Source: Fibrobacter succinogenes subsp. succinogenes S85
Lineage (GTDB): Bacteria; Fibrobacterota; Fibrobacteria; Fibrobacterales; Fibrobacteraceae
Length of the DNA stretch: 32,000 nucleotides
Direction of reading: 5' to 3'
Assembly: GCF_000146505.1 (NCBI RefSeq)
Contig: NC_017448.1
Span: 2,190,001 to 2,222,000 of the forward strand
A program made the position numbers and the translations under genes. Position 1 is the first letter of the stretch, and each line of letters starts with the position of its first letter. Under the pieces are notes generated by a model. The model saw only the letters and a list, made by a program, of their open reading frames with translations. It did not search any database and was not told the DNA's origin. Positions 8,524 to 20,292 of the stretch are shown here, one piece after another.

Positions 8524-9728
8524 AAGTCCTCGTCATAGGCTCCGTCTATCCAAGATTTCAAGAAGATGCCGAAGTTCCCTGGCTGCGCACTTCCATCGCG
8601 CATTTGAAAAAAGCGGGCGTTGAAATCCAGGTACTCGCTCCTGCATACAAAGGACTCAAGAGCCACGACATTGACGGAACGCACGTGAACCGCTTCCGTT
8701 ACGCACCCGCAAGCTGGGAAATCCTCACGCACGAAGAAGGCGCCCCAAGCAAGATGGCCTCCAAGCCATGGTTGCAACTGCTCGCCATCCCTTACATCAT
8801 CAACGGATTTTTTCAGTGCATCAGGATTTGCCGCAAGTGGCGCCCTGACGTGATTCACGCGCACTGGCCGTTTCCGCACGCTTACATTGCACTCGGTGCG
8901 GCCAAGCTTTTTAAAATTCCGCTCGTACTGAACTTCCATGGTGCAGAACTCCTGCTCATCCGCAAAAAGAAGTGGGTCAAACCGCTCCTGAAATTTGCCA
9001 TCGGACAGGCTCAGGCGATCTTTGCAAACTCAAGTTTCACCGCCGGAAAAATCAAGGCGCTCCGCAACGTAGACGTTGAATGGAGTCCGTACGGAACTAC
9101 GCTAGAGACGAGTAGGTTGCAAGGTGAGTGTCGCAACGGCAAATTCAAAATTCTCTTTGTCGGGCGGCACATCGAACGCAAGGGAATCTGCTACCTCATC
9201 GAAGCCGCGAAATACCTGCCCAGAGACAAGTTCGAAATCCGCATTGTCGGTGTCGGTGACTTGACCGAACAGCTTAAGCAGCAAGCAGCTTTATTAGACG
9301 AGAGACAAAAGACGAAAGACGAGAGAGGGGCCGAAATCATTTTCACGGGAAAGCTTTCTCCTGAAGATCTCGCAAACGAATACCGCACGGCAAACGTCTT
9401 TACGCTACCGGCCATCGTTGATCACAAGGGTGACACCGAAGGACTCGGGGTCGTGCTCATCGAAGCGATGGAACTTGGACTGCCGATTGTTGCAAGCAAT
9501 GTCGGTGGCATCCCGGATGTCGTTGTCAATGGAGAGTCCGGAATTCTCGTTCCTGAAAAAGACCCTGTTGCACTTGCCAATGCCTTCAAGCGTCTCGAAG
9601 CAGACCCGACATTGATTCAAAAACTCCTTGCCGGCGCCCGCAAACGCATTGACAAATGCTTCACCTGGGACGGCATCATCGAACGCCAGGTTGAAGTGTA
9701 CAAGAAAGTAGTAGACAGTAGGAAGTAG
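8520..9728 (+). CDS. Glycosyltransferase family 4 (GT-B)
   Basis: C-terminal signature EGLGVVLIEAMELGLPIVASNVGGIPDVVVNGESGILVP. The N-terminal domain (VLAPAY.., HAHWPFPH) is typical of GT4. Confidence 0.85.
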   Translation: MKVLVIGSVYPRFQEDAEVPWLRTSIAHLKKAGVEIQVLAPAYKGLKSHDIDGTHVNRFRYAPASWEILTHEEGAPSKMASKPWLQLLAIPYIINGFFQCIRICRKWRPDVIHAHWPFPHAYIALGAAKLFKIPLVLNFHGAELLLIRKKKWVKPLLKFAIGQAQAIFANSSFTAGKIKALRNVDVEWSPYGTTLETSRLQGECRNGKFKILFVGRHIERKGICYLIEAAKYLPRDKFEIRIVGVGDLTEQLKQQAALLDERQKTKDERGAEIIFTGKLSPEDLANEYRTANVFTLPAIVDHKGDTEGLGVVLIEAMELGLPIVASNVGGIPDVVVNGESGILVPEKDPVALANAFKRLEADPTLIQKLLAGARKRIDKCFTWDGIIERQVEVYKKVVDSRK

Positions 9729-9746
9729 GAAGTAGGAAGTTAGAAG
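9719..9746 (+). repeat. (TAGGAAG)x3 + TTAGAAG heptamer array
   Basis: Read directly. The GT4 stop codon (9726-9728) is the second TAG. TAGs at 9719, 9726 and 9733 fall in all three frames. Confidence 0.9.
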
Positions 9747-9766
9747 TAAAAACAGATAAAAAATAA

Positions 9767-10364: not shown

Positions 10365-11114
10365 TCAAGGGGTATTTGAAAAATAAACCTTTGTTTCCAT
10401 AAAATTTTCGCCCCACTCTATCAGGCGCCAGCGCGGTGCAGCCGAACTCAGACAAAATACCGTAATGTTTGGGTCAATCTGCATCTGCGTCGACGGCGTG
10501 ACATACACAGTCTTGTCTTCAAGCTGGATAGTCATCTCGCTGTGGTAATGCCCGACAAAAATATGCTTAAGATTCTTAATCTTCGAAAGCGTCGCCTGGA
10601 CTTCGGCAATATTCTTCATCGAATATCTCAAATCCATGAACTTGTGGCCGCAAAGGCAAGGCGGGTGATGGAGGAACAGCAGGACTTCACCATCAATTTT
10701 AGCCGTCTCCTGCTCAAGCCATGAAAGCTGATCGGACGAAACCGTGCCGTCTGCACTATCCAAGAAGAAAATCGAACGTCCGTCGAGATCGTAGCGGTAA
10801 TAGCACTTTCCGTTATGGACCTTGTCCTTCAAGTCAAAGACCTTTTCCATGACTTCAAGATTGTCGTGATTTCCAGGAATAATGCAGACCGGGACCTTGC
10901 TGTCCTTGATGACACCGGCAATGAAAGAATAGGCGTCTGTGGACGCATTGTCGGCCAAGTCTCCAGAAAGCACCAAAAGGTCCAAATCCTTCATGGATTC
11001 GGAATTATAGGCCGTAAGGAAATTCTTGCGAACATCGATATCCTGCACAAGGCGGTCATCGTCACCGATGTGCGCATCCGATATCTGACCTATCTTGAGT
11101 ACTTTCTTTTCCAT
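10365..11114 (-). CDS. Calcineurin-like metallophosphoesterase (CpdA-type cyclic-nucleotide phosphodiesterase family)
   Basis: Ordered motifs DAHIGD, GDLADN, GNHDN, HHPP and GHYH. Start taken at ATG 11112-11114 (MEKKVLKIGQ...). Confidence 0.8.
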   Translation of the reverse strand: MEKKVLKIGQISDAHIGDDDRLVQDIDVRKNFLTAYNSESMKDLDLLVLSGDLADNASTDAYSFIAGVIKDSKVPVCIIPGNHDNLEVMEKVFDLKDKVHNGKCYYRYDLDGRSIFFLDSADGTVSSDQLSWLEQETAKIDGEVLLFLHHPPCLCGHKFMDLRYSMKNIAEVQATLSKIKNLKHIFVGHYHSEMTIQLEDKTVYVTPSTQMQIDPNITVFCLSSAAPRWRLIEWGENFMETKVYFSNTP

Positions 11115-11455
11115 ACAACTACGTAGAATATACATGAATATAGCTATTGAGACACGAAAATGAAAAGTTTGTCCGTTTTTTTATGCATTTTGTGATGACA
11201 GGCATACTTTTGTGAACTTTGTCACACAATCTTCAACATACTTTCGTGACCATTTCGTGAATTAACATTGAAAACTCTGGTTCAACATCTATCAACGTTG
11301 AAAAAAGTGAATAGATTTTAAATTTTCAACATTAATCCACATTTTGTTTATTTCTGTAACTCGTTGATTTTCATAGAGTTACATTTTTGATTTCAAATTT
11401 TTATCCACTATTCACTACATTAAATATTAAATACTATATATAAATATATCTAATA

Positions 11456-11833
11456 TTATTTAATAGAGGTGGTTGATTGTTTTTCCTTCTTGCCTGCAGG
11501 CGTTTCGTTCATGTCGCAAGCACCCTGGAAGATGGCTCCTTCGTTGATGACGAGCTGTTCTGCCTTTACATTACCGATTATTTTGGCATTGTCCTGTAGA
11601 ATGAGCTTTCCGTTGCATTCTACATTTCCCTTGATAGCACCTGCAAGAATAGCGGTGCCACACTTGACATCGCCTTCTATAATTGCAAGCTTTTCGAGAA
11701 TCAGTTCTCCGTCAATAAAGACGTTTCCATAAACCTTTCCGGCGATGCGCAAATCCGTTTTTCCGGCAATATCTCCATTGACCTGGACACTTCTACCAAC
11801 TTGAGTAAATTCCTGTTCGTTTTTGCTCGCCAT
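11456..11833 (-). CDS. Bactofilin (polymer-forming cytoskeletal protein)
   Basis: 125 aa of repetitive beta-helix pattern (G.V.G.I......I.G.V.GNV) with a short Lys/Glu-rich tail. SD is AAAGGGGAAAATT-ATG. Confidence 0.85.
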   Translation of the reverse strand: MASKNEQEFTQVGRSVQVNGDIAGKTDLRIAGKVYGNVFIDGELILEKLAIIEGDVKCGTAILAGAIKGNVECNGKLILQDNAKIIGNVKAEQLVINEGAIFQGACDMNETPAGKKEKQSTTSIK

Positions 11834-11862
11834 AATTTTCCCCTTTCTTATTTGGCTATCTT

Positions 11863-12663
11863 CTAGTATGTAAATATCGTTTCCGGATCTTGCGGCAGGT
11901 TATTCTTGGTAATGGAATAATGCAAGTGCGGACCGCTCGTGTTGCCAGTGTCGCCTACATAACCGATAACATCGCCTTTTGTGACATTCGCTCCTCTTCG
12001 GGTTCTGATACTCTTGAGGTGTGAATAAGACGATTTGTAACCGTTCTGGTGGTCGATGACAATAGTGTTTCCAAGGTCGCCGCTATTACCTGCAAATGTG
12101 ACCTTGCCGCTACCCGATGCAAAGACCGGGTTCCCCTTGCGTGCAGAAATGTCAATTCCCAGGTGCTTGTTTTCATACGAGAATTTTTTGCTGATGATAC
12201 CTACGGCCGGGATGACGTTCGGGATGCGTTCCAAGCGAATTTTTTCGTCGGTCGTAAGCCAGTTGTGTATCCCTTCGAAGTCGATTTGGTTTTTCGCTGA
12301 AGGCACGTGCGCAAATCGGTTGCGTTCTATAATGCTGTTAATCTTGTTGGAGTCGTTTTCAAGGAATGTCTCGAAAATATTCTGGATTCGGTTTTCCATG
12401 ATCCACAGTGAATCAAGTCTCGAGAAGAACTCTTCGTAGTTCGCGTTCTGCTTCACGAGCTGTGCGTTGTGTACGCGCATCTTTTCATAATTTGCGAGAG
12501 TCTTGTTGATTTTTGCAATGTGGACTATGAATAAAATAAGTATGATGGCAACAAGGACAAGCCCGACATTGAACAAGACAAATTGCTTGTTCGAAATGCG
12601 GAACTTTCTTGCACCGGTCGTGTTTTCCGGAATAATCTGGATGGTGTAATACTTACGACTCAC
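11863..12663 (-). CDS. M23 (LytM-type) peptidase with N-terminal TM helix and coiled coil
   Basis: HLGIDISA, GNTIVIDHQNGYKSSYSHL, GYVGDTGNTSGPHLHYSI. GTG start lies 10 nt after the parB stop. Confidence 0.85.
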   Translation of the reverse strand: MSRKYYTIQIIPENTTGARKFRISNKQFVLFNVGLVLVAIILILFIVHIAKINKTLANYEKMRVHNAQLVKQNANYEEFFSRLDSLWIMENRIQNIFETFLENDSNKINSIIERNRFAHVPSAKNQIDFEGIHNWLTTDEKIRLERIPNVIPAVGIISKKFSYENKHLGIDISARKGNPVFASGSGKVTFAGNSGDLGNTIVIDHQNGYKSSYSHLKSIRTRRGANVTKGDVIGYVGDTGNTSGPHLHYSITKNNLPQDPETIFTY

Positions 12664-12673
12664 GATTTTACCG

Positions 12674-13672
12674 TTAGCGATTGTCCATTATTTCCTGGAT
12701 TCTTGTCAGGTCGTCCATGGAATAATAGTTGATGACGATGGTGCCTCTAGTCTGGTCCTTGGCGTTCGGGTTGAGTGCGACCTTTGTACCGAAGAATGTT
12801 TCGAGCCTGTTTTCGAAGTTCTTGAGGTCAGCGCTGAGTTCCGGCTTCGGTCTCGGTTCGCTGCCGTGGACTTCCGGCATTTCATCTTCTTCGGGAGTAG
12901 ATGCGCCATTTTCCGGTTCAGCTTCTTTCGTCTCTCCCTCGTCTCTCGTCTGGGCGAACGGATCTTCACCGCGGGCAATAGCTTCGATCTGGCGAACGTT
13001 CAAGCCTTCTTCGATGACGCGCTTTGCGAGAGCTTCCGGGTCTGCAATTTTTTCACTGCAGAGAGCACGGGCGGCACCGCCTGCAAGTTTGCCTTCTTGG
13101 ATCCAGGCTTGCACCTGGTTCGGGAGTTTCAAGAGACGAAGTGCGTTCGTGATGGCAGAACGGGACTTGCCGACCGTCTTGGCCAAGTCGTCGTGCGTGT
13201 AGTTGTGGTTGTCGATCAACTGCTGGTAGGATTGTGCCACTTCAATCGGGTTCAAGTCCACGCGCTGGATGTTCTCGATGAGAGCCCATTCGCTCATGGT
13301 CTTGTCGTCAAGATTGTCGTAAACCTGAGCCTTGATGGTTCTGCAGTTGGCAAGTTTCGATGCACGAGTACGGCGTTCACCGCTGATGATTTGATAACGG
13401 TCGCCCACCTTGCGGACAGCAATCGGCTGGATAAGGCCGTGCTTTTCGATGGTTTCAGCAAGTTCGACAAGTTCATCGTCGTCGAAGAACTTGCGCGGCT
13501 GGAACGGGTTCGGGTCAATCAAGTCAATGTTGATTTCGACGATTTTCTGATTGTCCGTATTTACGTTTTCAGTAGCTCCGGTATTGTTGATGGCGTTATC
13601 GACAGAGTTGCCGAGAACATCGTGTGCCTTAAAAATTGCAGAGAGACCGCGACCAAGTGCTTGTTTACCCAT
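12674..13672 (-). CDS. parB: Chromosome partitioning protein ParB/Spo0J
   Basis: GRGLSAIF box, IQPIAVRK...YQIISGERRTRASKLA (ParB box/CTPase motif), an HTH region, and a C-terminal dimerisation domain after an acidic linker. Confidence 0.95.
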   Translation of the reverse strand: MGKQALGRGLSAIFKAHDVLGNSVDNAINNTGATENVNTDNQKIVEINIDLIDPNPFQPRKFFDDDELVELAETIEKHGLIQPIAVRKVGDRYQIISGERRTRASKLANCRTIKAQVYDNLDDKTMSEWALIENIQRVDLNPIEVAQSYQQLIDNHNYTHDDLAKTVGKSRSAITNALRLLKLPNQVQAWIQEGKLAGGAARALCSEKIADPEALAKRVIEEGLNVRQIEAIARGEDPFAQTRDEGETKEAEPENGASTPEEDEMPEVHGSEPRPKPELSADLKNFENRLETFFGTKVALNPNAKDQTRGTIVINYYSMDDLTRIQEIMDNR

Positions 13673-13686
13673 TTTTTAGTTCTCAG

Positions 13687-13786
13687 TTAGTAGTTAATAG
13701 TTGCTAGAATATTTAGTTGGCAGAACTTAGACCGCTTCGCTCTTAGAACTTAGAAAAAAATACTAAGCTCTAAGCTCTAAGTTCTA
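13687..13786. repeat. TAG/CTA-word palindromic spacer between parA and parB
   Basis: Plus strand: TTAGTAG TTAATAG TTGCTAG (13687-13707) ... CTTAGAACTTAG-A7-TA-CTAAGCT CTAAGCT CTAAGTT CTA (13763-13786). TAGAACTTAG (13744-13753) is complementary to CTAAGTTCTA (13777-13786). The parA stop (13784-13786) is the first TAG of the minus-strand array. Confidence 0.8.
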
Positions 13787-14569
13787 TTTTTCCTTATTCA
13801 GTATTTCTTCGGCGAGCTTCATGTACGACTGCGAGCCTGTGCTCTGTACATCGTAAAGGATGACCGGCTTGCCATGGGACGGGGCTTCGGAGAGTTTCAC
13901 GTTGCGCGGGATCATCGTCTGGAAAACGGTGTCGCTCAAGTTCTCGCGAACTTCTTCAGCGACCTGCTTTGAAAGGCTCAGACGGGAATCGTACATCGTG
14001 AGGAGGGCGCCTTCGATTTTCAAGTTGGAGTTCAGATTCTTCTGGACTTCACGGATGGTCTTGAAAAGTTCAGTCATACCTTGCAATGCATAATATTCAC
14101 ACTGCACCGGAATGAGCACGCTTGTTGCGGCCGTCAGTGTATTAATTGTGAGTAAGTTCAGGCTCGGAGGAGCGTCGATGATGATAAAATCGAACTCCTG
14201 CTTGAGAACGTTCATCACGCGTTCGAGTCTGCGTTCGCGGCTCATGGCGTTGACAAGTTCAATTTCCATGACGGCAAGGTCCGGTCCAGAAGTGATGACC
14301 TTGAGGTATTCAAGCGACGTGTCCAAGATGGCGGGCTTGATATTTTCGAGCGTGAGATTGTCCGGATTACCAGCCATGTCCAGAATTTCGTGGATATCCA
14401 TGTCCTGGGATTCCATGAAACCGAGACCTTGAGAGGCATTACCCTGCGGGTCCATGTCTAAAAGAAGTGTCTTCTTTTCAAGGGCTGCAAAACTCGCGGC
14501 CAAGTTCACGGCCGTAGTAGTTTTACCGACGCCACCTTTTTGGTTGCATATGGCGATAATTTTACTCAT
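13784..14569 (-). CDS. parA: Chromosome partitioning ATPase ParA/Soj
   Basis: Deviant Walker A (MSKIIAICNQKGGVGKTTTAVNLA), DMDPQGNAS, IIIDAPPSL. Confidence 0.95.
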   Translation of the reverse strand: MSKIIAICNQKGGVGKTTTAVNLAASFAALEKKTLLLDMDPQGNASQGLGFMESQDMDIHEILDMAGNPDNLTLENIKPAILDTSLEYLKVITSGPDLAVMEIELVNAMSRERRLERVMNVLKQEFDFIIIDAPPSLNLLTINTLTAATSVLIPVQCEYYALQGMTELFKTIREVQKNLNSNLKIEGALLTMYDSRLSLSKQVAEEVRENLSDTVFQTMIPRNVKLSEAPSHGKPVILYDVQSTGSQSYMKLAEEILNKEK

Positions 14570-15215
14570 TATTACCTCGGGTGACTAGAGCGTACACCTG
14601 TTCTTCTTCTGGAAGTTCATACTTCTGGATATGCACTTTCGGATCGTTTTCCAAATGGGCAATATTGTTGAAGCTCTTCAGCGTGACAAAAACACCACCA
14701 CGCTTGAGACCTGCCTGGGCGCGTTCCCAGTCGTTTTCAAAAGTCGAGAGGGCGCGGCAGCTGATAAAATCAAGGTCGGTGAGGCCGGAAGTTTCAAAGC
14801 GCTTGCCGACGACGGTCAAGTTGTCCAAGTGGAGCTTTTCCTTGACCATCTGCATAAAGTTCACGCGCATGTGGCGTGGTTCGACAGCATAGAACTGCAC
14901 GTTCGGCATGGCAATTGCAAGCGGAAAAACTGGGCAACCTGCTCCAGCACCCATATCTGCCCAGCGTACAGTGTCATCCTGAGTGGACAGTGTTTTTCCT
15001 AAAAACACAAAGGGAACGAGAGAGTCGGCAATGTGCCTGCTTAAAAACTTTTCAGAATCCTTTGCCGAAATCAAGTTACCATATTCCTTGGTGTCCACCA
15101 CCAAGTCTGCAAACTGGTAAAGCTTGTCGAGAGTCTCTTCGGACAGCTGCACGCCATGTCCCGAAAGGAACTGGTTCAAAAGATCTTGCTGCGCTTTGTT
15201 AGTTCTATAACTCAA
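14562..15215 (-). CDS. rsmG: 16S rRNA (guanine527-N7)-methyltransferase RsmG (GidB)
   Basis: SAM-binding DMGAGAGCPVFPLAI. Typical length and typical position immediately upstream of parA (8-nt overlap). Apparent TTG start at 15213-15215. Confidence 0.9.
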   Translation of the reverse strand: MSYRTNKAQQDLLNQFLSGHGVQLSEETLDKLYQFADLVVDTKEYGNLISAKDSEKFLSRHIADSLVPFVFLGKTLSTQDDTVRWADMGAGAGCPVFPLAIAMPNVQFYAVEPRHMRVNFMQMVKEKLHLDNLTVVGKRFETSGLTDLDFISCRALSTFENDWERAQAGLKRGGVFVTLKSFNNIAHLENDPKVHIQKYELPEEEQVYALVTRGNNE

Positions 15216-15242
15216 GTTTTCTCTTTTTGTGATATGGAAAAA

Positions 15243-15322
15243 TGTTTGGACACTTCGTGTCCAACATGCTCATGCTCGGTCATGCCGGTGTACAAGCACC
15301 CCGTCGCGACACTCGCTATCGC
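15243..15322. repeat. Three-hairpin element, copy 1 (GGACAC hairpin - linker - ACAAG-loop hairpin - small hairpin)
   Basis: TGTTTGGACAC-TTC-GTGTCCAACA (15243-15266), linker ..GCTCGGTCAT.., GGTGT-ACAA-GCACC (15287-15300), GCGA-CAC-TCGC. The same order and similar spacing are seen at 15895-15972. Confidence 0.7.
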
Positions 15323-15407
15323 ATGTTTGCTCCTTCGGAGCCAACTTGCTGCACCTCGGAAATGTCGGTAAACAAGTTTCCCGCCGCTTCCTCGGTTTGC
15401 AATTGTT
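15323..15407 (+). repeat. 85-bp direct repeat, copy A
   Basis: 84/85 identical to 15814-15898. Begins with the hairpin TGTTTGCTCC-TTC-GGAGCCAAC. Its last 4 nt (TGTT) are also the first 4 nt of parS at 15404. Confidence 0.9.
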
Positions 15408-15419
15408 TCACGTGGAACA
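15404..15419. other. parS: parS centromere-like site, TGTTTCACGTGGAACA
   Basis: 15/16 match to the palindromic consensus TGTTTCACGTGAAACA, and identical to the reverse complement of the Bacillus subtilis-type TGTTCCACGTGAAACA. Lies 190 bp upstream of rsmG-parAB. Confidence 0.85.
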
Positions 15420-15544
15420 TTTTTGACTATCATATTCCGATTTGAAATTTAGTATAACTTTTTTAGAAAACAATTAACAAACTCCCCCGCTCCCTAAAAT
15501 TCATAAAATATATGTTGATAACATTTTGATAAATGTTGAGAAAC

Positions 15545-15795
15545 TGTTAAGCCGAATGCTGCGAAATGTATGCTTGCATACATTTCATAGCTGAGGCGCC
15601 AGTTTCGCGCTTGCGCAAATGTTGTTAAGGCGAGAGTTGCGGAAAGCATGCTTGCATGCTTTCCATAACCGAGCCGACCAACATAGCGCTTGCGCAGAAC
15701 TTGTTAAGGTGAGAGTCGCAAAAATAAGCTTGCTTATTTTTATGACCGAACCGCTGAGTTCGCGCTTGCGCAAAAATTGTTAAGGTGAGAGTCGC
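15545..15795 (+). repeat. Tandem array, about 3.3 units of 76-79 bp, each with two CTTG-loop hairpins
   Basis: Unit landmarks TGTTAAG at 15545/15623/15702/15778. Long-hairpin loops (CTTG) at 15573, 15651 and 15729 are exactly 78 nt apart. The conserved short hairpin GCG-CTTG-CGC is at 15607, 15686 and 15762. The GAGAGTYGC motif is at 15632, 15711 and 15787. Confidence 0.85.
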
Positions 15796-15813
15796 TTTGT
15801 TTTTGTTTGGACT

Positions 15814-15898
15814 ATGTTTGCTCCTTCGGAGCCAACTTGCTGCACCTCGGAAATGTCGGTAAACAAGTTTCCCGCCGCTTTCTCGGTTTGCAATTGTT
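15814..15898 (+). repeat. 85-bp direct repeat, copy B
   Basis: One mismatch versus 15323-15407 (C/T at repeat position 68). Preceded by a half palindrome TGTTTGGACTAT (15804-15815) and followed by the GGACAC hairpin at 15898-15916. Confidence 0.9.
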
Positions 15899-15972
15899 AG
15901 GACACTTTGTGTCCTACCTCTTGGGGCTCAGTAATGCCCATACAAGTATGGGCGCTACATTCGCCCTGTAGA
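15895..15972. repeat. Three-hairpin element, copy 2
   Basis: TAGGACAC-TTT-GTGTCCTA (15898-15916), linker ..GCTCAGTAAT.., GCCCATA-CAAG-TATGGGC (15936-15953), CTACA-TTCGCCC-TGTAG. Same architecture as 15243-15322. Confidence 0.7.
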
Positions 15973-15988
15973 GGTTTCACGTGAAACA
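15973..15988. other. parS: parS site, GGTTTCACGTGAAACA
   Basis: 15/16 match to the consensus; only the outermost base differs. It forms the 5' end of a 105-nt structured module (15973-16077). Confidence 0.85.
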
Positions 15989-15995
15989 CAGCCGA

Positions 15996-16077
15996 GGTCA
16001 GAAAGCGAAAAAATGCTTGCATTTTTTTATTTGCTGACCGATGGGTGTTGGACTATGGCTTTGCTATAGTCCAAACA
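15996..16077 (+). repeat. Long A/T hairpin (CTTG loop) plus TGTTGGAC...GTCCAAACA palindrome
   Basis: GGTCAG-AAAGCG-AAAAAATG-CTTG-CATTTTTTT-ATTTG-CTGACC (15996-16039), then TGTTGGACTATGG-CTTT-GCTATAGTCCAAACA (16046-16077). Confidence 0.8.
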
Positions 16078-16078
16078 T

Positions 16079-16106
16079 ATAAAAAATCCTCCCGATTCTG
16101 GGAGGA
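16079..16106 (-). terminator. Intrinsic terminator of the 16132-16851 lipoprotein gene
   Basis: On the minus strand, the hairpin TCCTCCC-AGAATC-GGGAGGA is followed by T6. Confidence 0.75.
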
Positions 16107-16131
16107 TGTTCAAGAAGTTTAAAGCTAAATG

Positions 16132-16851
16132 TTAGCGGTATAAAAAGAAGTAAGTTCCGGTCTTGCGGTCTTCCCCATCTTCCGTATGTGTATCGGTCAG
16201 TGTGACCATCCCGTCTTTAACACCAGTTTCGTAACGATTCCAGGTGTACCAAATGTCGCCACGATGTTCTTTCCTATAGCAGGTATTTTTATCGTTCTCG
16301 TCCATGACAATGATTTCATTATAATCAATTCTGAAAATGGTATCTGTTTTCATGACGTAAGTGATGGTAGATTCGCCGTCTTCGTCGGTGGATGTGGTGG
16401 CCAAGGAATCCCCGTCGAAATAGATGGTCATTGTATTGCTTACATCGCCGACTGTTTCAGTTATTGTCCAAATGTTGCCTTCGTGTACAACTGTAGGTTC
16501 TTGGGTTCTTACAGTGGTCTGGTATGTCCATTCACCATTGCGGAGGTTTGCTTCGTAAGCACTGTCGAGGTGTGTGCCAGTCCAGTATGCTTTATAAATG
16601 TAGATGGATTTGCCTCTATTACTAGCGCTACCCTTGTCCATGTAAAGACTGTCTGGTACTAAACCATGATAATCCTTGTCGTAGATAGAAAGAGTAGATC
16701 TCTTGTAATCGAATACTGTTTGGAGACAGTTGGTGTAGGTATATCCTACAGGATTATTGGTGGGTGAATTATTGACAGGTGCTGTGCTTGATGAATCATC
16801 GCTGCAGGCAACAAATAGTGCTGCTGCTAAAAGAAAAATTTTAGAGTTCAT
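16132..16851 (-). CDS. Hypothetical lipoprotein
   Basis: Lipobox LAAALFVAC followed by a Ser/Asp-rich linker. 239 aa, beta-rich. Confidence 0.7.
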   Translation of the reverse strand: MNSKIFLLAAALFVACSDDSSSTAPVNNSPTNNPVGYTYTNCLQTVFDYKRSTLSIYDKDYHGLVPDSLYMDKGSASNRGKSIYIYKAYWTGTHLDSAYEANLRNGEWTYQTTVRTQEPTVVHEGNIWTITETVGDVSNTMTIYFDGDSLATTSTDEDGESTITYVMKTDTIFRIDYNEIIVMDENDKNTCYRKEHRGDIWYTWNRYETGVKDGMVTLTDTHTEDGEDRKTGTYFFLYR

Positions 16852-17476: not shown

Positions 17477-17685
17477 GCAAAATATATCCACTTCAAATCT
17501 TTTGTGGTGGATGTATATCCTATCCCTCCTAAGAATATTACCTGGAAAGGGTTGTATTTGTTTTCGTAGATGTTGCTTAGGTCTATAGAAAAAGTGGAAT
17601 CCTGCACTGGATTTTCCAATACAGATATTTTTGCAAAAGCAAAAGATATAGAGATGAGGAATATGGTAAGAGTCTTTTTAATCAT
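17473..17685 (-). CDS. Small secreted protein, 70 aa (possibly the N-terminal part of a split gene)
   Basis: MIKKTLTIFLISISFAFA signal peptide. The ATG overlaps the stop of the VOC gene (ATGA at 17682-17685). The longer track ORF (to 17907) overlaps the VOC gene and is rejected. Confidence 0.5.
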   Translation of the reverse strand: MIKKTLTIFLISISFAFAKISVLENPVQDSTFSIDLSNIYENKYNPFQVIFLGGIGYTSTTKDLKWIYFA

Positions 17686-18086
17686 ATAGTAATCTCTATT
17701 CTGTTGCCTTCGGGGTCGAGGACGACACTTTCGTAATACCCGTCGCCGGTAGTTCGAGGTTGACCTACAATAGGAGTCCCTTCGGAAGACATTTGTTGGG
17801 TCAGGTGGTCGACCTCTTCTTTTGAACCGACGGAAAAGGAAAGATGGGTAAATCCGAGATGTTCCACGTGAAACATCTCGACAGTCCCAACATTTCGTTC
17901 GACACATATATCAGGGCGGTGCATGACTTCTAGGCGGGCACCATCATCGAAAGTGATGAATCGGCTGGTGAATTGTTTTGCTGGGTTATGGTAAATCGGG
18001 TGGACTACCCCGCCGAAATATTTCCGGTAGAACTCGCATACCTTGTCGATATCTTTAACCCAGATGGCAATATGTTCAATCTTCAT
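17682..18086 (-). CDS. VOC family protein (glyoxalase/bleomycin-resistance/dioxygenase fold)
   Basis: MKIEHIAIWVKDIDKVCEFY...HLSFSV...YYESVVLDPEGNRIEI. Typical size of 134 aa. Confidence 0.8.
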   Translation of the reverse strand: MKIEHIAIWVKDIDKVCEFYRKYFGGVVHPIYHNPAKQFTSRFITFDDGARLEVMHRPDICVERNVGTVEMFHVEHLGFTHLSFSVGSKEEVDHLTQQMSSEGTPIVGQPRTTGDGYYESVVLDPEGNRIEITI

Positions 18087-18143: not shown

Positions 18144-18159
18144 TGTTTCACGTGAAACA
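18144..18159. other. parS: parS site, TGTTTCACGTGAAACA (perfect consensus)
   Basis: 16/16 palindrome, located in the divergent intergenic region between the VOC gene and the 18298 gene. Confidence 0.9.
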
Positions 18160-18166
18160 CAATCAA

Positions 18167-18265
18167 GAATACCAAGCAAAAACATACTCGTATGTTTTTA
18201 TTTGGTATTCGCAGAGTGTAGGACTACGATGTAATCGTAGTCCCAACACATGAGCCGAGAGTCGC
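18167..18265 (+). repeat. Second copy of the long A/T hairpin + GGAC palindrome module, followed by GAGAGTCGC
   Basis: GAATACCA-AGC-AAAAACATA-CTCG-TATGTTTTT-AT-TTGGTATTC (18167-18210), TGTAGGACTACGAT-GTA-ATCGTAGTCCCAACA (18217-18248), GAGAGTCGC (18257-18265). Confidence 0.8.
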
Positions 18266-19475: not shown

Positions 19476-19874
19476 ATGGAAGAAGTTAAAAACTTTATCA
19501 AGGAATGTGGTGCCTATTTCCTCGCAACGGTTGATGGTGACGAGCCGAAAGTACGCCCGTTCGGTACTATTGAAATTTTTGAGGGCAAGCTCTACATCCA
19601 GACTGGTAAGTCCAAGAACGTTTCGAAGCAGATCCAGAAAAACGGCAAGGTTCAGCTTTGCGCCATGAATAAGACTTGCAATAAGTGGTTGCGCTTGAGC
19701 GGAACGCTCGTCCGTGATGATCGCCGTGAACCCAAGGTCCATATGCTTGAAGCCTACCCTGAACTCAAGCGTATGTATTCCCCGGACGATGAAAACACCG
19801 AAGTTCTCTACTTCAAGGATGCTACCGCCACGTTCTGCAGCTTCACTGAAGCACCGCGTACCATAAAGTTCTAA
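19476..19874 (+). CDS. Pyridoxamine 5'-phosphate oxidase-like FMN-binding family protein
   Basis: 132 aa. YFLATVDGDEPKVRPFG...GKLYIQTGKSK pattern typical of the PNPOx-like split-barrel fold. SD is AAGGAG. Confidence 0.65.
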   Translation: MEEVKNFIKECGAYFLATVDGDEPKVRPFGTIEIFEGKLYIQTGKSKNVSKQIQKNGKVQLCAMNKTCNKWLRLSGTLVRDDRREPKVHMLEAYPELKRMYSPDDENTEVLYFKDATATFCSFTEAPRTIKF

Positions 19875-19905: not shown

Positions 19906-20109
19906 GTATTCTTTAGACGCCGAGTTCCCCGCGAGCTTGGCTTTTTTCATATGGAACAATTATAGCGCTCTAAATTTTAATACAACATATATTATGTAGT
20001 TGATAAACTGACTTAATTTTATTAACTATTGAATTTATAAATCAAAAAAAACTGTAAAAATTCATTTTTATTGTTTATAGATAATGAACAATTTTTCTCA
20101 CAATAACTA

Positions 20110-20125
20110 TGTTTCACGTGGAACA
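20110..20125. other. parS: parS site, TGTTTCACGTGGAACA
   Basis: Same 16-mer as at 15404. Lies in an AT-rich 418-bp intergenic region, 11 nt upstream of a perfect DnaA box. Confidence 0.85.
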
Positions 20126-20136
20126 ATTTCAGTTTT

Positions 20137-20145
20137 TGTGGATAA
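20137..20145. promoter_or_regulatory. DnaA box, TGTGGATAA (perfect E. coli-type consensus, reverse orientation)
   Basis: Exact 9-mer. Whether this organism uses this consensus is not known from the window alone. Confidence 0.45.
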
Positions 20146-20292
20146 TATGTAAAATTGTGAGATAAAAGGTTGATTCGCGTTGAATATTTGATAACATTAT
20201 ATCAACATATATTTTTACGCTTGTAGACGGAAAATTTAGTCAGGCTTTCATTTATTCGGTTTACATATATTATATTTCTTTGTGGAGGCTTT

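Follow-up and report, generated by a model that had tools for sequence, protein, structure and literature searches.

The gene-free spacer of 916 bp upstream of rsmG and parAB in Fibrobacter succinogenes S85 is probably a nest of non-autonomous hairpin elements, akin to REP sequences or MITEs (small transposable elements with inverted repeats), gathered around genuine parS sites, and not a non-coding RNA (ncRNA) gene. Coordinates without a label refer to the window, a stretch of 32 kb of the S85 genome that was analysed as a whole; labels L001–L075 denote loci from relatives. A single family of units of ~80 nt makes up ~683 of the 916 nt (~75%). To judge from sequence conservation, the functional skeleton of the spacer is small, consisting of two parS sites and a conserved AT-rich core of ~105 bp. 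An initial annotation had described the spacer as free of genes and saturated with hairpins. Both descriptions held: no gene lies between the stop of the neighbouring 239-aa gene and the rsmG start and, folded as single-stranded DNA (ssDNA), the spacer reached a minimum free energy of −161 kcal/mol, compared with −114 ± 5 kcal/mol in shuffles (z = −8.7).

Architecture and conserved pairing of the repeat unit

The initial annotation had divided the spacer into distinct structured modules, namely three-hairpin elements, 85-bp repeats, tandem units and a long hairpin with a palindrome. Aligned in a common orientation (alignment and profile), all of these share one architecture and belong to one family of two-hairpin units. 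Most of the modules were present as described: the 85-bp repeats (15323–15407 and 15814–15898) are 99% identical, the tandem array, annotated with a 78-nt period, has a period of 76–79 nt over 15545–15795, and the long hairpin and palindrome lie at 15996–16039 and 16048–16074. The two elements of ~80 nt are indeed diverged copies of each other (15240–15286 and 15892–15938, 74% identical), but they carry two hairpins and not three. The hairpin at 16086–16107 lies outside the family; it is the terminator of the 239-aa gene. In all, the window holds ten units, nine full and one truncated, including a tenth at 18160–18250 outside the spacer. Along the + strand the mosaic reads ← ← parS1 [core] → → → ← ← parS2 →, that is, U1(−), U2(−), parS1, the AT-rich core, T1–T3(+), a truncated unit with an inverted end fragment, U7(−), U8(−), parS2, U9(+) and the terminator (Table 1).

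Read on its forward strand, a unit begins with a short 5′ flank, followed by the long imperfect hairpin hp1, ~10 nt of spacer, the short hairpin hp2 and a tail that ends in ...AAAC(AT). A strict structural search with a regular expression, which returned 66 matches, resolved the architecture of hp1. From outside to inside it comprises a 3-bp stem, tandem G.A plus one pair, a 1-nt bulge, a second 3-bp stem, GC opposite AT, a variable inner stem and, usually, a CTTG loop. The G.A element places GA(G/A) opposite (C/T)GA, giving potential tandem G.A pairs and one Watson–Crick pair that covaries between G:C and A:T.

We built a covariance model, R1, on hp1 and searched the window with filters off. 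Strong matches occurred only at 15273–16032 and 18174–18203, comprising seven full hp1 and two of the long-hairpin type, and the remaining 27 kb of the window gave no convincing unit. Across 667 kb of Fibrobacteraceae DNA, R1 matched 204 times. Among the 85 distinct sequences in the best 150 R1 matches, 93.2% of pair cells held standard pairs, compared with 64.5% in shuffles and 30–43% in slid controls; all 16 pairs had double-sided changes and compensatory cells numbered 407, against 137 in shuffles. These counts lean towards structure, since the model itself shaped the alignment and a pairing filter had been used to choose the seeds. The earlier observation that stems differ between copies while pairing is kept thus has a quantitative basis, and the covariation supports its corollary that selection acts on structure rather than on primary sequence.

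The second hairpin is informative about the strand. Its loop is C-GAA-G in 44 of 111 distinct units and C-GNA-G in 53, always counted on the strand that carries the G.A motif; the complementary loop occurs in 3. The d(cGNAg) motif is a classic hyperstable DNA mini-hairpin, and this preference, together with the loop asymmetry, points to one strand and to DNA rather than RNA. The molecule under structural selection is more likely to be ssDNA than RNA, and the well-defined, covarying hairpin architecture implies a structure-specific partner protein.

Conserved pairing would also be expected if the units acted as RNA, whether as a 5′-leader element of rsmG–parAB, as small RNAs or as hairpins that stabilise or process mRNA. 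The covariation at 16 of 16 pairs fits such a role, the G(CUUG)C loop and the tandem G.A are good RNA motifs too, and a predicted rsmG promoter at 15451–15480 would place parS1, U2 and U1, the units in forward sense, in a leader of ~228 nt. However, both unit orientations occur within one spacer, the unit in the leader has the opposite sense in L005, L008 and L009, and dispersed units show no strand bias relative to open reading frames (ORFs). Promoter and terminator scans found neither signal framing the array, the cGNAg triloop preference points to DNA, and the units turn over between near-identical strains. Known RNA families were not encountered either: a search of Rfam 15 found only a tRNA in the window and chance-level matches in the spacer at E ≤ 10, with none overlapping units in 18 further loci and no unit matched at the gathering or E-value threshold. 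These findings leave the proposed structured ncRNA locus unsupported, and we regard a role as RNA as very unlikely.

Dispersal, parS association and strain turnover

The units are not confined to this locus. We scanned 185,579 species-representative genomes, a collection without S85, with the subfamily pattern TGAGWGTCGC-N16-28-ATGACCGAACC. Of 63 matching stretches, 61 lay in Fibrobacterales records (Fibrobacter, Hallerella, unclassified Fibrobacteraceae and one Fibrobacterales metagenome-assembled genome (MAG)), and the other two were chance matches in actinobacteria. One genome contributed up to 15 contigs with the pattern. Many matches lay at contig ends, as expected of repeats that break assemblies. 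A parS site was present in only about 4 of the loci, the others carrying units without parS within 8 kb, and several units lay inside long ORFs. In L001 and L002, close relatives of S85, copies likewise occur at a distance of several kb from the parS zone. With respect to ORFs the units favoured neither strand, whether inside them (18 same versus 15 opposite) or between tandem genes (6 versus 4). The family thus recurs at many unrelated Fibrobacteraceae sites, an outcome that the initial annotation had named among those that would reduce the spacer to REP clutter, and this dispersal supports the third role suggested there, a nest of REP/MITE-like elements. A viral origin was also considered and rejected, as the unit pattern has no match in IMG/VR.

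In the S85 window, by contrast with these dispersed copies, all ten units lie in a parS zone of ~5 kb and none in the remaining 27 kb, and nine other strains have ~70 units in the zone compared with ~6 outside it, within loci of 20 kb. The window contains five parS sites (starting at 15404, 15973, 17860, 18144 and 20110), where 0.09 would be expected by chance; the cluster spans ~4.7 kb beside parAB, and the GC/AT skew switch is ~4 kb away. The two sites in the spacer, both already recognised in the initial annotation, match the 16-bp palindrome tGTTNCACGTGAAACa with 0 and 1 mismatches and, by this sequence criterion, are genuine parS centromere sites, predicted to bind ParB.

Units meet parS in a fixed direction. 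All loci together contain 66 parS sites. On 48 flanks of these sites a unit adjoins parS with its 5′ end, at constant spacing (25 left flanks with − units and 23 right flanks with + units, representing 31 distinct sequence contexts), and on only 2 does a unit turn its 3′ end to parS. In the spacer, the 5′ end of U2 abuts parS1 and the 5′ ends of U8 and U9 abut parS2, while the 5′ end of U1 directly adjoins the ...GCAAAC with which U2 ends. The 5′ flanks of the 67 non-parS units read G/A-T-S-A-A-A-A-S, many of them being the 3′ tail of a preceding unit, and AAAC is the commonest 4-mer among 84 flanks (29, with AAAA in 6 and GTAG in 5). A unit therefore sits after (A)AAC, supplied either by the parS half-site GTGAAAC, which ends in it, or by another unit with its AAAC tail. 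Given the palindromic symmetry of parS, this rule accounts for both the divergent stacks around parS and the head-to-tail arrays. The arms around one parS always belong to different subfamilies, so that no perfect long palindrome arises. The parS sites at 17860 and 20110 of S85 have no unit at all. No replication-strand bias was apparent within the S85 parS zone, where 6 units lie on the + strand and 4 on the −.

Five strains with flanks of 94–100% identity (S85, L002, L005, L008 and L009) revealed how quickly the mosaic changes. The tandem array varies from 1.5 to 4.5 units, with differing stems. To the right of parS2, the position of U9 holds a different subfamily in L005 and L008, although the flanks are 100% identical. 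At parS1, S85 and L002 have two units on the left, and L005, L008 and L009 have one on the right. Kept in all strains are the parS sites, the U7–U8–parS2 block (97–100% conserved in the five strains), the terminator and the core at 15436–15540.

Empty and filled sites locate the junctions. GTGAAAC|ACAATC in S85 corresponds to GTGAAAC[80-nt unit ...CCAAAC]ACAATC in L002, and aatc|atatag in S85 and L002 corresponds to aatc[192-nt block]atatag in L005 and L009. The 192-nt block consists of two units, a parS and a mini-hairpin, and has no target duplication. Given the strain relationships, a gain in L005 and L009 is the more parsimonious reading, in which case a parS would have been copied to a new place together with units. 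At 17860–17875 of S85, a consensus parS without units lies within an intact glyoxalase/VOC gene (17682–18086, −), where it encodes ..MFHVEH..; in L002, L005 and L008 a 170-nt composite of unit, parS and unit replaces it, the called product being 186–206 aa long there and 134 aa in S85. Three empty/filled pairs place the unit 5′ end directly after ...AAC, and in single-unit insertions an AAAC direct repeat of 3–4 nt is indistinguishable from a duplication. Gene conversion and slippage between copies must also contribute to the turnover.

These observations are best accommodated if the units are non-autonomous selfish DNA. Units would insert 3′ of (A)AAC, at the end of a parS half-site or at the tail of another unit, and would then be lost, swapped by gene conversion or varied in copy number; blocks of units carrying a parS would be copied to new positions within the parS zone. 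The hairpins would be kept because a structure-specific ssDNA enzyme, of the HUH type or similar, needs them for mobilisation. We infer that the behaviour most resembles that of ssDNA elements moved by HUH enzymes, such as REP/REPIN sequences with RAYT or IS200/IS605-derived miniature elements; the features in common are a pair of subterminal hairpins, an asymmetry between the strands, a constant orientation 3′ of a short sequence and, for the 192-nt block, the lack of target duplication.

Several points weigh against a nest of mobile elements. No mobilising enzyme was found in the fetched loci. A fragment of an IS200/IS605-family Y1_Tnp gene, found with an approximate IS608 TnpA query, lies directly downstream of three units in the Fibrobacteraceae MAG L030 (622–999, −; 1117–1428). 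It was rejected as the mobiliser: its full-length relative at L075 (3001–3453) has unrelated LE/RE hairpins, no R1 match and no units nearby. A tblastn search of 687 kb of loci with an approximate RAYT-like query, a weak test, found nothing. The S85 genome paper reports only IS231K-like and IS91-like insertion sequence (IS) matches and is silent on these repeats. A functional RNA, too, would show strong covariation together with conserved non-canonical motifs, and the pair counts have the lean described above. Genome-wide dispersal was shown in relatives, in a collection without S85, and every copy in the S85 window lies within the parS zone. Finally, selection for a function at parS, and not a preference for the target, could account for the local enrichment of more than 100-fold and for an orientation rule that is close to perfect.

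Such selection would make the units part of the partition complex: on both sides of parS, their hairpins would extrude from supercoiled DNA or bind a host protein, and could in this way set the position of ParB clamps or insulate them, assist the loading of SMC or stop transcription that runs in from outside. The confinement of all 10 S85 units in the 32 kb to the parS cluster, with the corresponding excess in the nine other strains (~70 versus ~6), accords with a centromere architecture of this kind, as do the orientation rule (48 versus 2), the presence of units beside parS in every strain and species examined, the conservation of the U7–U8–parS2 block and the constant difference between parS arms, which avoids a perfect long palindrome. 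Yet the family also occupies dozens of sites without a parS within 8 kb, some of them in ORFs; of the five parS sites in S85, two have no unit; and the side, number and type of the parS1 units vary between near-identical strains. In some strains a unit–parS–unit composite even disrupts the conserved glyoxalase gene. We consider a selected centromere architecture unlikely. Of the centromere-organising region suggested in the initial annotation, only the link to parS is supported: it is real, and stronger than that annotation had recognised, as seen in the strict orientation rule, the strong local enrichment and a repeat hotspot in every relative examined.

A nest of mobile elements thus remains our preferred reading, and it admits a more specific version that we put forward only tentatively, and with some doubt. 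An ssDNA mobile element might home to GTGAAAC, the half-site of parS, and also to its own 3′ tail, which resembles parS; it might pick up a parS and seed it at new positions. If so, the multi-parS cluster of Fibrobacter would owe its construction and reshuffling to a selfish element that targets centromeres; such an element would be a bacterial counterpart of eukaryotic centromere-homing transposons, and co-option into the partition complex would be possible. The tight, directional association with parS, and at least one block that carries a parS at a new site, suggest that bacterial centromere sites can be multiplied and moved by repeat elements. Confirmation of this would bear on the evolution of multi-parS clusters and on how ParB and SMC loading tolerates or exploits hairpin-prone DNA. 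The analysis also offers an explanation for a puzzling spacer next to parAB in S85, a model cellulolytic strain, and, in the covariance model, a definition of a repeat family that breaks up assemblies and gene calls in Fibrobacteraceae.

Locus context and further observations

The window matches CP001792.1 around 1.75 Mb at 99.99% identity and in the same orientation. The spacer lies upstream of an operon (11456–15215) encoding RsmG/GidB, ParA, ParB, an M23 peptidase and bactofilin. With ParA and ParB identified by Pfam domains, parA and parB lie 0.8–2.7 kb from parS1. The same gene order was found in 10 of 10 related loci fetched. The operon is kept in all ten strains, and the ParA protein is 100% identical among strains with DNA that is only 83–97% identical. 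That the spacer is the largest non-coding stretch in the window, as had been claimed, is plausible but unproven: the ORFs in 901–2177 are all small, although one of them matches an LRAT domain.

The AT-rich core between parS1 and the array (15436–15540) is 100% identical in L002, L005, L008 and L009 and 87–92% identical in L001 and L004. A promoter scan predicted a sigma-70-like promoter facing rsmG, with TTGTTA (15480–15475) as −35 and TATACT (15456–15451) as −10 element, and the core probably carries the rsmG–parAB promoter. Tandem Repeats Finder identified three 11-nt repeats, ATGTTGAKAA, at 15512–15548, one of which forms a DnaA box with one mismatch (15513–15521).

Table 1. Units, parS sites and other features of the spacer and its surroundings
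Feature	Position	Strand	Details
rsmG (RsmG/GidB)	14562–15215	-	
Gene-free spacer, F. succinogenes S85	15216–16131		916 bp; bounded by stop of 239-aa gene and rsmG start
Unit U1 (earlier 'three-hairpin element A')	15240–15322	-	nhmmer E = 3e-12; R1 61.5 bits; fold; hp1 15273–15317; hp2 GGACAC-TTC-GTGTCC 15248–15262
Unit U2 (85-bp repeat copy a)	15323–15403	-	R1 50.9 bits; hp1 15353–15396; hp2 GCTCC-TTC-GGAGC 15329–15341
parS1	15404–15419		TGTTTCACGTGGAACA; 0 mismatches to parS consensus
AT-rich spacer without units	15420–15543	-	
Head-to-tail array of three full units	15544–15778	+	T1 15544–15622, T2 15623–15700, T3 15701–15778; hp1 15551–15597, 15629–15675, 15708–15752; covariance model 43.5, 52.3, 66.8 bits; hp2 GCGCTTGCGC starting at 15607, 15686, 15762
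Junction debris	15779–15813		5′ part of truncated fourth unit 15779–15795 (+) fused to inverted fragment; sequence reading
Inverted unit-3′-end fragment in junction debris	15796–15813		Reverse complement of ...AGTCCAAACAAAAACAAA
Unit U7 (85-bp repeat copy b)	15814–15892	-	hp1 15844–15887; covariance model 44.4 bits
Unit U8 (earlier 'three-hairpin element B')	15893–15972	-	hp1 15925–15965; hp2 15900–15914; covariance model 46 bits
parS2	15973–15988		GGTTTCACGTGAAACA; 1 mismatch
Unit U9 (long hairpin plus palindrome)	15989–16078	+	Extended hp1 15996–16039; hp2 16050–16072; fold z = −6.05
Intrinsic terminator of 239-aa gene	16086–16107	-	Outside the repeat family
239-aa gene	16132–16851	-	No Pfam match
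Tenth unit, outside the spacer	18160–18250	+	5′ end abuts parS 18144–18159; fold z = −9.9
~170-nt composite, L001	~19620–19760 (original coordinates)		Also in L012, L014, L016, L017, L024, L029, L035, L041, L049, L058, L064, L065, L070, L073
carB-like sequence with units, L039	4900–6900		Also in L025, L027, L047, L050, L071
carB-like sequence with units, L074	7001–7444 and 9792–10160		

A spacer next to gidB (rsmG) could also be part of the replication origin, since DnaA boxes and an unwinding element lie there in many bacteria. The GC and AT skews change sign within the window, and the spacer is upstream of rsmG and carries the near-consensus DnaA box and the phased 11-nt repeats. The skew minimum, however, is at ~11–12 kb, ~4 kb from the spacer; the near-consensus box is the only one in the spacer, the window's only perfect box being at 20137–20145; and three quarters of the spacer consists of strain-variable units. 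With better candidates at 11136–11455 and 19960–20290, we rejected oriC in the spacer as highly improbable.

Both of these AT-rich regions have features of their own. The GC and AT skews both flip at 11000–12000, although the genes on either side are mostly on the − strand. The intergenic region 11136–11455, with the metallophosphoesterase gene on one side and the bactofilin gene on the other, contains TAATCCACA, TTATCCACT and several copies of TCAACA. These sequence features make it a candidate oriC at a distance of ~4 kb from the parS cluster, despite the position of the window at ~1.75 Mb in CP001792.1. The spacer at 19960–20290 contains the parS at 20110–20125 as well as the perfect DnaA box and is conserved in other strains; an inverted repeat like ATATGTTGATA within it recurs at 15508–15520.

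Units were also seen in three recurrent settings elsewhere. A composite of ~170 nt, ...GGCGTCGGCCAAGGAATACCTTCGCAAAAG[unit]CTCCGAGCTGGGGCCCCGCCCGCAT, with imperfect inverted ends, occurs in many species; in L001 it is downstream of an M48 peptidase gene, a position at which S85 has no composite. The heptamers AGACGAA and AGTAGGA form tandem repeats in and at the end of a GT4 glycosyltransferase gene (window 9296–9326 and 9717–9748). In L001 a unit lies within this heptamer-rich stretch (original coordinates 15584–15637), and the ORF stays open, at 451 aa compared with 402 aa in S85; L013, L026, L031, L042 and L063 also have a unit in a matching AGACGAR heptamer context. Third, a carB-like (MGS-domain) sequence of F. 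intestinalis, Hallerella and other Fibrobacter is broken by several units in both orientations, some of them 77 and 79 nt long, which are not multiples of three, and some carrying stops. Small introns or bypass elements were rejected as an explanation, the databases holding only fragments of 60–165 aa and the H. succinogenes fragments lying in an IS-rich region; in that species two MGS fragments sit among IS and toxin remnants. The carB-like pieces are probably decaying gene copies rather than spliced genes.

Comparison with known systems

Three known systems were set aside directly. A classical DDE-type MITE does not fit, as single units have no terminal inverted repeats and the 192-nt block has no duplication around it. 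By inspection, with no integrase search made, integron attC sites differ too, in that the stem base is variable here (GGT/ACC, GCC/GGC and others), there is no 3′ GTTRRRY and the core sites that close an attC hairpin (RYYYAAC and GTTRRRY) are thus missing. A CRISPR or type III antitoxin array was rejected because the tandem units are whole two-hairpin units without spacers and no cas or toxN gene is adjacent; the S85 genome paper places its CRISPRs at other coordinates.

Among dispersed repeats, the REP/BIME sequences and REPINs of gamma-proteobacteria are similar in being short, hairpin-forming and non-coding, in forming mosaics of alternating orientation, and in varying between strains while the hairpin is kept. 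They are mobilised by RAYT, an HUH Y1 transposase, and are thought to move as ssDNA. Unlike REPs, which are single palindromes of 20–40 nt, the present units are ~80 nt long with two different hairpins, their inner stems diverge widely between copies in one locus, and some copies lie inside ORFs. They also have no general GTAG/CGTC tag (GTAG flanks 5 of 84), and a specific association with parS is unreported for REPs in the literature searched.

With the IS200/IS605-derived PATEs the units share a subterminal imperfect hairpin near each end (hp1 and hp2), a strand-asymmetric structure, a fixed orientation 3′ of a short specific sequence and, for the 192-nt block, the absence of target duplication. 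By contrast with PATEs, we found no cognate TnpA whose end hairpins match, the lone Fibrobacteraceae IS200-like gene seen having unrelated ends. The 3′ end of the unit repeats its target (AAAC), whereas in IS608 the target differs from the element's own 3′ end (TTAC against TCAA).

Pneumococcal BOX elements resemble the units as modular, hairpin-forming mosaics whose internal tandem modules vary in number, and Rickettsia palindromic elements (RPEs) resemble them in occasionally inserting into ORFs that stay open, as in the GT4 gene of L001. Neither these nor the Correia elements of Neisseria have any sequence relationship to the units, and all come from a different phylum; the TA target duplication of Correia elements is absent here, and the orientation rule at parS is foreign to the three families. 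Multi-site parS clusters and sopC of the F plasmid likewise place several ParB sites within a few kb beside parAB, in repeated DNA. In contrast to sopC-type arrays, however, the repeated DNA here is a dispersed flanking element and not the ParB site itself, and T1–T3 contain no parS.

In kind, this family is a REP/BIME-, BOX- or PATE-like repeat, but without a clear fit to the defining features of any of them. We found no description of it in the literature searched for repeats in Fibrobacter and for parS sites in repeats, and Rfam has none. As far as its sequences indicate, what sets the family apart is a hairpin with a G.A element and bulge, whose stems covary freely, combined with a directional association with parS.

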